From the IMG/VR virus record IMGVR_UViG_2690316121_000001, positions 1 to 4,487 of that record: a DNA stretch of 4,487 nt; one strand, given 5' to 3'. A program made the position numbers and the translations under genes. This stretch comes from a virus (taxonomy: Duplodnaviria > Heunggongvirae > Uroviricota > Caudoviricetes). Of the stretch, positions 1 to 3,911 are shown piece by piece; positions within the stretch are counted from its first letter, which is position 1; each line of letters opens with the position of its first letter. The notes beneath the pieces are model-generated. The model was not told where the DNA came from, made no database searches, and saw only the letters and a list, made by a program, of their open reading frames with translations.

Positions 1-36
1 AAAGCTAAGTTCGGACTGAAAGGAGCAAGTGTATGA
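1..36 (+). CDS. P: 3' end of replication protein P-like gene (partial, start lies upstream of window)
   Basis: Frame 1 reads KAKFGLKGASV then TGA at 34-36, with no stop before it. The stop overlaps the ren ATG at 33-35 (ATGA), which is the P/ren arrangement I recall from lambda. Identification rests on memory of the lambda P C-terminus and on gene order only. Confidence 0.5.
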   Translation, partial: KAKFGLKGASV

Positions 37-323
37 CGGGCAAAGAGGCAATTATTCATTACCTGGGGACGCATAATAGCTTCTGTGCGCCGGACGTTGC
101 CGCGCTAACAGGCGCAACAGTAACCAGCATAAATCAGGCCGCGGCTAAAATGGCACGGGCAGGTCTTCTGGTTATCGAAGGTAAGGTCTGGCGAACGGTG
201 TATTACCGGTTTGCTACCAAGGAAGAACGGGAAGGAAAGATGAGCACGAACCTGATTTTTAAGGAGTGTCGCCAGAGTGCCGCGATGAAACGGGTATTGG
301 CGGTATATGGAGTTAAAAGATGA
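33..323 (+). CDS. ren: Ren protein (lets the phage escape Rex exclusion)
   Basis: 96-aa ORF, MTGKEAIIHYLGTHNSFCAPDVAALTGATVTSINQAAAKMARAGLLVIEGKVWRTVYYRF..., essentially identical to lambda Ren as I recall it. AGGAG at 21-25 sits 7 nt before the ATG; stop TGA at 321-323. Confidence 0.93.
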   Translation: MTGKEAIIHYLGTHNSFCAPDVAALTGATVTSINQAAAKMARAGLLVIEGKVWRTVYYRFATKEEREGKMSTNLIFKECRQSAAMKRVLAVYGVKR

Positions 324-395: not shown

Positions 396-722
396 GTGGC
401 TGACTGGCAAATACCAATCATCATTCTTGCCGGAGCTTCGCTGGTTGCTGGCTTTATCCTGCTGAAGAAGCATAAAGACCGTGATCAAAAAGTCGAAGTT
501 CTCTATGGGTATCCGGCGAACAGCACAACATGGCTGACTATTTACCACTACCGAAAATCAGGCCGTTGGGTATTCGAATGGGATGATCTGTTTGCTGAAA
601 AGCGACCAAAGTCATGGGGAGACATCAGCGAATGCATGATGTTTGAAGAAAGAAAATCCGGCGCAACCCGAGAAGAGTTTAACGAAGCGTGGAGGCGATT
701 AAGTGAGAGGGGGTATCAATGA
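396..722 (+). CDS. Hypothetical small membrane-anchored protein (108 aa), not present at this position in lambda
   Basis: GTG start at 396 preceded by a strong SD (GGGGGAGGG, 381-389). The N-terminus WQIPIIILAGASLVAGFILL is a hydrophobic helix followed by KKHKDRD (positive-inside), then a ~85-aa charged, Trp-rich soluble domain. Stop TGA at 720-722; the ninB SD/ATG follows 22 nt later. No homolog recognised. Confidence 0.65.
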   Translation: MADWQIPIIILAGASLVAGFILLKKHKDRDQKVEVLYGYPANSTTWLTIYHYRKSGRWVFEWDDLFAEKRPKSWGDISECMMFEERKSGATREEFNEAWRRLSERGYQ

Positions 723-744: not shown

Positions 745-1191
745 ATGAAGCAAATATACATGCTTCGCAACGAAGCAATCAGAAACAACGCCATAGACGC
801 AATACTCTCACTTCCGATCGACGACAAGTCACCTCACGAAGTCCACATTAAAGAACCCAGGCGGAGCAATCCTCAAAACCGCCTTATGTGGGCGTTATTG
901 CAGGACGTATCACGTCAGGTGCTTTGGCATGGAAAGAGACTTGCGCCGGAGGACTGGAAAGATCTGTTCACTGCCCTGTGGCTTAAGACCAAAAAACTGG
1001 AGCAACGAAGTGCGCCTGGTATCGACGGTGGCGTTGTCATGCTTGGCGTGCGTACCAGCAAAATGCGAAAGGCCAGCATGACTGAGCTTATCGAAATCAT
1101 GTTCTGGTTCGGCTCAGAGCGCAACGTGCGGTGGAGTGATGACTCCCGGCGAGAGTATGAATGGTCACAACGAAAAGGTAGGGCTGCATGA
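745..1191 (+). CDS. ninB: NinB/Orf-family recombination protein (divergent from the lambda allele)
   Basis: 148 aa. The central block NPQNRLMWALLQDVSRQVLWHGKRLAPEDWKDLFTA parallels lambda NinB (DQNRKLWACLGDVSRQVEWHGRWLDAESWKCVFTA as recalled), and the C-terminus ends ...RAA as in lambda. GAGGT SD 5 nt before the ATG. Stop TGA at 1189-1191 overlaps the next ATG. Confidence 0.85.
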   Translation: MKQIYMLRNEAIRNNAIDAILSLPIDDKSPHEVHIKEPRRSNPQNRLMWALLQDVSRQVLWHGKRLAPEDWKDLFTALWLKTKKLEQRSAPGIDGGVVMLGVRTSKMRKASMTELIEIMFWFGSERNVRWSDDSRREYEWSQRKGRAA

Positions 1192-1715
1192 CTATCAAAT
1201 CAAATACGCCAGCACACGACAAGGACTGCTGGCAAACGCCGCTTTGGCTTTTTGATGCACTGGATATTGAGTTTGGATTCTGGCTGGATTAGGCAGCGAG
1301 CGACAAAAATGCTCTGTGCGCTCACTGGCTAACTGAGGCTGACGACGCGCTAAATTCTGAGTGGGTAAGCCACGGTGCAATCTGGAATAACCCACCGTAC
1401 AGCAATATCAGGCCGTGGGTGGAAAAAGCCGCTGAGCAGTGTATACAACAACGACAGACGGTAGTGATGCTTGTGCCAGAGGATATGTCAGTCGGATGGT
1501 TCAGCAAGGCTCTGGAGAGTGTCGACGAAGTTCGTATTATCACTGATGGACGGATTAATTTTGTCGAACCATCGACAGGACTGGAGAAGAAGGGAAACAG
1601 CAAAGGTTCCATGCTGCTGATTTGGCGACCGTTCATCAGTTCTCGACGGATGTTTACTACTGTATCCAAAGCGGCATTGATGGCGATCGGGCAGGGCGTC
1701 AGGAGGGCAGCATGA
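1188..1715 (+). pseudogene. Phage Dam-family DNA N6-adenine methyltransferase interrupted by an in-frame amber codon (TAG at 1290-1292)
   Basis: One frame (frame 0) reads MTIKSNTPAHDKDCWQTPLWLFDALDIEFGFWLD, then TAG, then AASDKNALCAHWLTEADDALNSEWVSHGAIWNNPPYSNIRPWVEKAAEQ...VRRAA. It carries the WxTP N-terminal motif and the NPPY catalytic motif IV of N6-adenine methyltransferases. ATG 1188 overlaps the ninB stop and TGA 1713-1715 overlaps the ninE ATG, so the gene is integrated in the operon. It occupies the slot of lambda ninC/ninD. Confidence 0.7.
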
Positions 1716-1888
1716 GACGACAGCGACGAAGTATCACCGACATCATCTGCGAAAACTGCAAATACCTTCCAACGAAACGCTCCAGAAATAAACGCAAGCC
1801 AATCCCAAAAGAATCTGACGTAAAAACCTTCAATTACACGGCTCACCTGTGGGATATCCGGTGGCTAAGACATCGTGCGAGGAAATGA
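1712..1888 (+). CDS. ninE: NinE protein
   Basis: 58 aa, [58 protein letters not shown], near-identical to lambda NinE as recalled. The ATG sits inside the ATGA overlap with the methyltransferase stop. Confidence 0.93.
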
Positions 1889-1890
1889 CA

Positions 1891-2292
1891 ATGCTTTTAA
1901 TTCAACCTGGGTTCGGTTTAAAGATAAAAAAAGGACATATGTTCGGTTTCGAAGAGTCGAAACGAAAAATTCTGTCCATTAGATTGCCGTTTATCACCAT
2001 TCATTGGTTAAACAAAGAGTCAACCGATTATTGGTATAAATGTGCTCTGGCCGCATTTAACGACCCTGACTGGTTTGTGAAAAACCACCACGCAGTTCGT
2101 CAGGCAAAGAGAAAGGCCAATACGACATACATGAAGGCGTATCGAAAAGCATGGAAAGAACACCGCGATCGATACCAACAAGACATGGAAAAGCTTGAAT
2201 CAGAAAACATGGAATTAAGACGAAAGCTCGGTGAAGCAAAACGAGACATTGATGCTTACAAGCGACTTTTTAATGGTGAAAGCCATGCTTAG
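1891..2292 (+). CDS. Hypothetical protein (133 aa) with C-terminal basic region plus leucine-zipper-like coiled coil; absent from lambda
   Basis: ORF in frame 1, tightly packed between ninE and ninF. Preferred start ATG 1891 has GAGGA 8 nt upstream; alternatives are ATG 1885 (ATGA overlap with the ninE stop) and ATG 1939. The 5' ~170 nt are AT-rich relative to flanks. C-terminus RQAKRKANTTYMKAYRKAWKEHRDRYQQDMEKLESENMELRRKLGEAKRDIDAYKRLF shows a heptad pattern L-N-L-L-A-I-Y-F at a/d positions. Stop TAG at 2290-2292 overlaps the ninF start region (ATGCTTAG). Confidence 0.6.
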   Translation: MLLIQPGFGLKIKKGHMFGFEESKRKILSIRLPFITIHWLNKESTDYWYKCALAAFNDPDWFVKNHHAVRQAKRKANTTYMKAYRKAWKEHRDRYQQDMEKLESENMELRRKLGEAKRDIDAYKRLFNGESHA

Positions 2293-2461
2293 CCCATCCC
2301 AAACCCTTCAATACCAGAAAGAAAGCGTCGAGCGAGCTTTAACGTGCGCTAACTGCGGTCAGAAGCTGCATGTGCTGGAAGTTCACGTGTGTGAGCACTG
2401 CTGCGCAGAACTGATGAGCGATCCGAATAGCTCGATGCACGAGGAAGAAGATGATGGCTAA
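2285..2461 (+). CDS. ninF: NinF protein
   Basis: 58 aa, [58 protein letters not shown], near-identical to lambda NinF as recalled, with a Cys-rich zinc-ribbon-like motif. Start taken at the lambda-equivalent ATG, not the upstream ATG of the track ORF. Confidence 0.9.
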
Positions 2462-3065
2462 ACCAGCGCGAAGACGATGTAAAAACGATGAATGTCGGGA
2501 ATGGTTTCACCCTGCATTCGCTAATCAGTGGTGGTGCTCTCCAGAGTGTGGAACAAAGATAGCACTCGAACGACGAAGCAAAGAACGCGAAAAAGCGGAA
2601 AAAGCAGCAGAGAAGAAACGACGACGAGAGGAGCAGAAACAGAAAGATAAACTGAAGATTCGAAAACTCGCCTTAAAGCCCCGCAGTTACTGGATTAAAC
2701 AAGCCCAACAAGCCGTAAACGCCTTCATCAGAGAAAGAGACCGCGACTTACCATGTATCTCGTGCGGAACGCTCACGTCTGCTCAGTGGGATGCCGGGCA
2801 TTACCGGACAACTGCTGCGGCGCCTCAACTCCGATTTGATGAACGCAATATTCACAAGCAATGCGTGGTGTGCAACCAACATAAAAGCGGAAATCTCGTT
2901 CCGTATCGCGTCGAACTGATTAACCGCATCGGGCAGGAAGCAGTAGACGAAATCGAATCAAACCATAACCGCCATCGCTGGACTGTCGAAGAGTGCTGGG
3001 CCATCAAGGCGGAGTATCAGCAGAAACTCAAAGACCTGCGAAATAGCAGAAGTGAGGCCGCATGA
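2451..3065 (+). CDS. ninG: NinG / Rap recombination protein
   Basis: 204 aa, [46 protein letters not shown]..., essentially identical to lambda NinG (Rap) as recalled. Overlaps the ninF 3' end by 11 nt; stop TGA at 3063-3065 overlaps the ninH ATG. Confidence 0.93.
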
Positions 3066-3268
3066 CGTTCTCAGTAAAAACCATTCCAGACATGCTCGTT
3101 GAAGCATACGGAAACCAGACAGAAGTAGCACGCAGACTGAAATGTAGTCGCGGTACGGTCAGAAAATACGTTGATGATAAAGACGGGAAAATGCACGCCA
3201 TCGTCAACGACGTTCTCATGGTTCATCGCGGATGGAGTGAAAGAGATGCGCTATTACGAAAAAATTGA
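3062..3268 (+). CDS. ninH: NinH protein (small, probable DNA-binding)
   Basis: 68 aa, [68 protein letters not shown], matching lambda NinH as recalled. The stretch [18 protein letters not shown] looks like a helix-turn-helix. ATGA overlap with ninG. Confidence 0.93.
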
Positions 3269-3911
3269 TGGCAGCAAATACCGAAATATTTGGGTAGTTG
3301 GCGATCTGCACGGATGCTACACGAACCTGATGAAAAAACTGGAGACGATAGGATTCGACACCAAAAAAGACCTGCTTATCTCGGTTGGCGATTTGGTTGA
3401 TCGTGGTGCAGAGAACGTTGAATGCCTGGAATTAATCACATTCCCCTGGTTCAGAGCTGTACGTGGAAACCATGAGCACATGATGATTGATGGCTTATCA
3501 GAGCGTGGAAACGTCAATCACTGGCTGCTTAATGGCGGTGGCTGGTTCTTTAATCTCGATTACGACAAAGAAATTCTGGCTAAAGCTCTTGCCCATAAAG
3601 CAGAAGAACTTCCGTTAATCATCGAACTGGTGAGCAAAGATAAAAAATATGTCATCTGCCACGCCGATTATCCTTGTGACGAATACGAGTTTGGAAAGCC
3701 AGTTGATCATCAGCAGGTAATCTGGAACCGCGAACGAATCAGCAACTCACAAGACGGGATCGTGAAAGAAATCAAAGGCGCGGACACGTTCATCTTTGGT
3801 CATACGCCAGCAGTGAAACCACTCAAATTTGCCAACCAGATGTATATCGATACTGGCGCAGTGTTCTGCGGAAACCTCACATTGATTCAGGTACAGGGAG
3901 AAGGCGCATGA
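3246..3911 (+). CDS. ninI: NinI Ser/Thr protein phosphatase (lambda PPase, metallophosphoesterase)
   Basis: 221 aa from ATG 3246 ([25 protein letters not shown]...), near-identical to lambda NinI as recalled. Metallophosphatase motifs GDLHG, GDLVDRG and GNHE are present. The track ORF begins upstream at 3171, but the lambda-equivalent start at 3246 gives the canonical 221 aa. Overlaps ninH by 23 nt. Confidence 0.93.

Follow-up and report, generated by a model that had tools for sequence, protein, structure and literature searches.

Within the TIGR01712/PF05869 family of phage adenine methyltransferases, the enzymes of HP1 and T1 have been reported to methylate GATC. Other orphan methyltransferases are carried by lambdoid and cryptic prophages. 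M.EcoPA8orf6770P, an MT-A70/DPPW prophage enzyme of E. coli, acts on 16S rRNA; this phiPA8 enzyme is encoded by a gene co-transcribed with its partner, gp6, and a natural disruption, by IS629 in phiPA2, is on record (PMC10810198). M.EcoGII is a beta-class, non-specific adenine methyltransferase (PMC5778455, PMC7544214). The gene described here is likewise an orphan methyltransferase gene of such a prophage; however, M.EcoPA8orf6770P and M.EcoGII belong to other protein families and occupy other genome positions. It specifies 175 aa with an NPPY motif and lies in the nin region, whereas the phiPA8 enzyme carries DPPW. Because the families differ, identity with M.EcoPA8orf6770P or M.EcoGII is ruled out.

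The window, that is, the whole stretch of 4487 nt that was analysed, spans the late-early 'nin' region, from ren to Q, of a prophage of E. coli that resembles lambda; all its genes lie on the plus strand (Table 1). Gene assignments are based on profile matches and on the annotation of near-identical loci. An accessory phage N-6-adenine-methyltransferase gene sits between ninB and ninE in this prophage, and it is very probably an ordinary null allele, namely a rare, inherited nonsense pseudogene produced by a single hit.

Table 1. Features of the 4487-nt window and their positions
Feature	Position	Strand	Remarks
ren	33-323	+	
phrog_5903 ORF	396-722	+	
NinB (Orf-family recombination mediator)	745-1191	+	Intact; PF05772, E 4.1e-48; WP_000810177.1
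Methyltransferase pseudogene	1188-1715	+	175 codons, broken at codon 35; TIGR01712/PF05869 with the stop read as X
N-terminal peptide, 34 aa	1188-1289	+	Translation; with WQTP, ending ...FWLD
Amber TAG	1290-1292	+	Codon 35; replaces Ser35 (TCG); causal C>A at 1291
Antisense ORF, 174 codons	1322-1846	-	Within methyltransferase gene; no Pfam match
NPPY catalytic motif	1389-1400	+	Codons 68-71; 3' of the TAG, now untranslated
In-frame ORF from GTG 1419, 98 codons	1419-1715	+	Without NPPY and without N-terminal motifs
NinE	1712-1888	+	Intact; PF05322, E 7e-44
phrog_1511 ORF	1891-2292	+	133 codons; stop TAG
NinF	2252-2461	+	Annotated start overlapped 41 nt by phrog_1511 ORF
NinG	2451-3065	+	
NinH	3062-3268	+	
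Ser/Thr phosphatase	3246-3911	+	
Antiterminator Q gene	Last in gene order	+	Start only

An initial annotation had described a Dam-family (PF05869-type) gene whose frame is open from ATG 1188 to TGA 1715 except for the TAG, with ATGA coupling kept at both ends and with the stop placed between a WxTP region and NPPY, and each of these points was confirmed at the same coordinates. The start codon (1188-1190) shares an ATGA (1188-1191) with the NinB stop and the terminal TGA (1713-1715) shares another (1712-1715) with the NinE start, both overlaps being intact, while W15-Q-T-P18 (codons 15-18) lies 5' of the TAG and NPPY lies 3' of it. With codon 35 read as X, the translation matches TIGR01712 (the NCBIfam equivalog for phage N-6-adenine-methyltransferase) over positions 1-165 of 165 (262.5 bits; curated cut-off 97.05) and PF05869 ('Dam') over positions 1-167 of 169 (E 4.7e-64; 215.6 bits; curated cut-off 28.1). 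The continuity of the frame across the TAG is not due to chance. The 34 codons 5' of the TAG match positions 1-33 of the TIGR01712 profile on their own and therefore belong to the gene, which rules out a gene that starts downstream of the stop, a case the initial annotation had allowed for. The 98-aa ORF from GTG 1419 covers positions 78-165 of that profile only. Motif IV of the family, (D/N)PPY, is present as NPPY, though it is encoded past the stop, and the unbroken reading frame of ~175 aa that marks a family member is lacking, given the TAG at codon 35. Because the frame is interrupted, the locus is a pseudogene of TIGR01712/PF05869 and not a functional member. No relative turned up when solved structures were searched by sequence.

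The sense codon that was lost can be read from the homologues, as the initial annotation had proposed: in the alignment, the E. coli prophages and the phages HK140 and ECP1, together with an Stx1 phage, have TCG (Ser) at codon 35, and all aligned intact alleles encode Ser there. The nearest intact alleles, those of the E. coli O127:H6 E2348/69 prophage and of isolate SC477, carry C where the window carries A at 1291, and this is the sole difference. Among 106 complete IMG/VR copies, which were drawn regardless of the state of the gene, 86 carry TCG at codon 35, a further 18 carry TCA, and two are out of register. As judged from these alignments, the ancestral codon 35 is TCG. A sense codon in 104 of 106 orthologues, together with the finding of no second disabling change in the gene, fits a single-hit nonsense pseudogene, and the fact that a single nucleotide (TCG>TAG) separates the gene from its intact E2348/69 counterpart bears out the earlier view of a point nonsense change as opposed to decay. 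Intact alleles differ from one another mainly by synonymous changes, which points to purifying selection on a functional gene.

A single C>A transversion at 1291 converted Ser35 (TCG) into an amber codon (TAG), so that translation would halt after 34 residues, 33 codons short of NPPY. The stop falls within an LD-S-AAS stretch that, by resemblance only, may represent the AdoMet-binding motif I. No in-frame ATG, GTG or TTG was found between the TAG and NPPY (1293-1388); the first is GTG 1419, which is codon 78. The suggestion in the initial annotation that a product started at this GTG would retain NPPY was mistaken, the motif occupying codons 68-71, upstream of it. No in-frame restart thus preserves the catalytic motif, as is typical of a pseudogene, and because no start codon precedes NPPY, no catalytic product would be expected. 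The predicted product is solely the 34-aa N-terminal peptide, and we infer from the sequence that methyltransferase activity is lost. Low-level natural read-through of UAG may count against a complete null.

Suppression or read-through of the amber codon, which would make the gene a conditional allele that is functional in a suppressor background, deserves consideration, since the serU-derived supD would put back precisely the Ser lost through TCG>TAG, and the gene has not decayed beyond the TAG. The initial annotation had raised a suppressor host as one explanation and had proposed a look at host suppressor tRNA genes. From the K-12 glnV, glnU, tyrT, serU and leuX genes we derived 51-mers, each with the anticodon change of supE, supF, supD, supP, supB or supC at its centre, and joined them to the methyltransferase gene in a single query; the wild-type tRNA loci of K-12 share no 28-mer with them. 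In two complete carrier chromosomes, none of these six classical suppressor alleles, supD included, was found, the sole match being the gene part of the query; this result covers six anticodon alleles in two chromosomes. About 160 further matches in other genomes are consistent with laboratory supE strains and serve as a positive control. The 4487-nt window holds no tRNA gene. TAG is also the genuine stop of the neighbouring 133-codon ORF (at 2290-2292), which indicates that the standard code applies in the window. Further, the TAG allele occurs in many unrelated samples, metagenomes included, and 528 nt without further change are expected under neutrality at a flank divergence of ~0.1%. Suppression is therefore unsupported where it could be assessed, and we regard a conditional, functional allele as highly improbable.

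The distribution of the allele was assessed with a query of 53 nt that has the A at its midpoint, so that megablast seeds only if the A is present. Two of 5426 complete E. coli genomes matched (Z1323HEC0475 and Z1323HEC0477, both human, South Korea), and none of the phage records did. The TAG allele is therefore rare, accounting for 2 of 2193 gene copies in complete genomes. Draft, SRA and metagenome carriers were found by exact look-up of the 34-aa and 98-aa ORFs. In all, 16 other assemblies carry the allele (two closed RefSeq genomes, six NCBI drafts, six Logan SRA assemblies and two ENA metagenomes), and all 16 loci (L004, L007-L011, L018-L027) are identical to the window gene at 528 of 528 nt. 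When IMG/VR and JGI metagenomes were scanned by exact pattern for a TAG or TAA in place of codon 35, neither gave a match. The 34-aa product is found on more than 1000 contigs. A correspondingly common amber allele was considered and rejected; most of these contigs hold intact TCG genes cut at the contig end (L013-L017). Draft contigs very often end inside the methyltransferase gene, more than 1000 of them just past column 104, likely because strains with multiple prophages hold several near-identical copies, and such breaks yield many 'partial' database proteins of 27-66 aa that mimic truncations.

The flanks of the carriers fall into several SNP haplotypes, with mosaic breaks in L010, L019, L020 and L022: the clustered flank differences in L020 and L022 point to recombination, and outright mosaic junctions are seen in L010 and L019. 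The window differs from each retrieved carrier copy at no fewer than four positions. Identical genes within varied flanks indicate one origin followed by reshuffling, and the mutation has a single origin on an E2348/69-type haplotype, after which it spread by inheritance and recombination. The flanks themselves have diverged by only ~0.1%, so the unchanged 528 nt are uninformative about continued selection. In this way the mutation has moved among related prophages in many E. coli isolates, with the gene remaining unchanged. In the two Korean genomes, different repressor/cro modules (L004 versus L007, positions 1-790) stand beside a 99.9%-identical region, and in L019 two HNH endonuclease genes lie between NinF and NinG (5015-6141); both the module swap and the insertion are typical lambdoid mosaicism around the amber allele.

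The same data bear on the origin of the TAG itself. The allele is one base from an intact one, as a sequencing or assembly artefact in a gene that is really intact would be, and an error of this kind had been listed in the initial annotation. However, the A at 1291 recurs in the 16 other independent assemblies, which derive from varied projects and platforms and have differing flanks, and we give an artefact next to no credence.

A second nonsense allele affects the same codon. In a Logan assembly (SRR15209000; L012, 2975-3502), codon 35 is TAA on a haplotype that lies 19 nt from that of the window, whereas its intact relatives, UMNK88 and E2863, have TCA; the TAA thus represents an independent C>A hit. 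This allele also carries E50D and W77L, and transversions of the G>T or C>A type account for four of the eight changes private to it, a pattern resembling oxidative damage. L012 was found by a look-up conditioned on the 34-aa product. As control queries we used N-terminal fragments cut just ahead of codon 47, 50 or 59; all carry Ser35 and so are not strictly encoded by the window, which calls for some care with their results. They retrieved genuine nonsense alleles at W47 (TGA, TAG), E50 (TAG) and W59 (TGA, TAG), each on at least two haplotypes (L034-L047). Codon 35 as a mutational hotspot was rejected on these grounds, all three of the other codons tested having nonsense alleles as well. In L035, a deletion joins the C-terminal part of the methyltransferase to NinG.

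Such recurrence raises the question of whether the knock-out is positively selected, that is, whether the methyltransferase is lost repeatedly and independently because its loss benefits the lysogen or the prophage, the amber allele being one such lineage. A cost, which the initial annotation had also mentioned, is conceivable, as leaky orphan adenine methylation might be harmful or draw methylation-dependent restriction. Moreover, each of the four accessible codons examined (35, 47, 50 and 59) has nonsense alleles, on two or more haplotypes or with two stop codons. In the PHROGs database, phrog_22740 matches residues 10-84 only and phrog_6083 ('DNA methylase') residues 87-175 only; both families probably derive from phage records in which the gene is split, and their one-sided coverage suggests that split copies are common there. 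On the other hand, the look-ups that gave the nonsense alleles asked for truncated products from the outset, and in a collection as large as the one used, with 153 billion gene positions, any accessible nonsense allele is expected of a dispensable gene.

An unselected sample was therefore drawn by exact match to 50 nt around NPPY, which gave 119 IMG/VR loci, 94 of them with the complete three-gene stretch. Clear disruption was seen in approximately 3-4 of ~88 assessed methyltransferase copies (L076, L080, L099, L144), compared with 1 of 81 for NinB and 2 of 85 for NinE, counts that are small and come from non-independent copies. Six more methyltransferase copies in the sample have a different 5' context and no lesion. 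Per base, there is no excess of methyltransferase disruption over NinB and NinE, and no sign of faster loss. The mostly synonymous differences among intact methyltransferase alleles and the rarity of the TAG allele in complete genomes also speak against selection for loss, which we consider unlikely. The reading we favour remains a plain null allele of an accessory gene, and we infer that its loss is neutral.

The effect on the remainder of the operon is probably small. The downstream genes are all intact, and NinE has an AGGAGG of its own at 1698-1703, 5 nt upstream of its ATG, so its translation need not be coupled to that of the interrupted frame. Rho-dependent polarity is suppressed in lambda when transcription is modified by N. 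With intact neighbours, a strong ribosome-binding site for NinE and antitermination of the N type, which would be expected to blunt polarity, the rest of the operon, the expression of Q included, is probably little affected by the amber codon, as far as the sequence allows this to be judged. The consequences for annotation are more visible. On contigs with the amber allele, the 174-codon antisense ORF has been called as a gene (e.g. L008, 4135-4659), sometimes replacing NinE, and it is most likely a calling artefact of the broken sense gene; the 98-aa ORF is also sometimes called as a gene (contigs L018-L027). The 34-aa, 98-aa and 174-aa antisense ORFs are by-products of one broken gene. As an ordinary loss of an accessory gene in a prophage, the case is of low significance, and its value lies chiefly in annotation and in methylome predictions, in which lysogens with the amber prophage should not be credited with the methyltransferase.

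The pseudogene is already annotated: RefSeq/PGAP flags it with an 'internal stop' in both closed genomes (pseudogenes WHU72_RS17350 in NZ_CP148326.1 and WHU57_RS13850 in NZ_CP148323.1). Both copies are identical to the window gene over 528 nt, including the TAG, and the ren-to-Q gene order is the same; each genome differs from the window at 5 of 4487 positions, all of them flanking, which places the window in a third, closely related prophage. The intact counterpart, WP_000153283.1 of the E2348/69 prophage, occupies the same position between ninB and ninE and is the same as the window gene at 527 of 528 nt, and the two are alike in both ATGA overlaps, in the full-length profile match and in WQTP and NPPY. 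They differ at codon 35, where WP_000153283.1 has TCG and the window has TAG, the ORF of the window being interrupted and an enzyme not expected. Natural disruption is documented for orphan methyltransferases of prophages, by IS629 in phiPA2, as it is found here by a nonsense change in the window gene.
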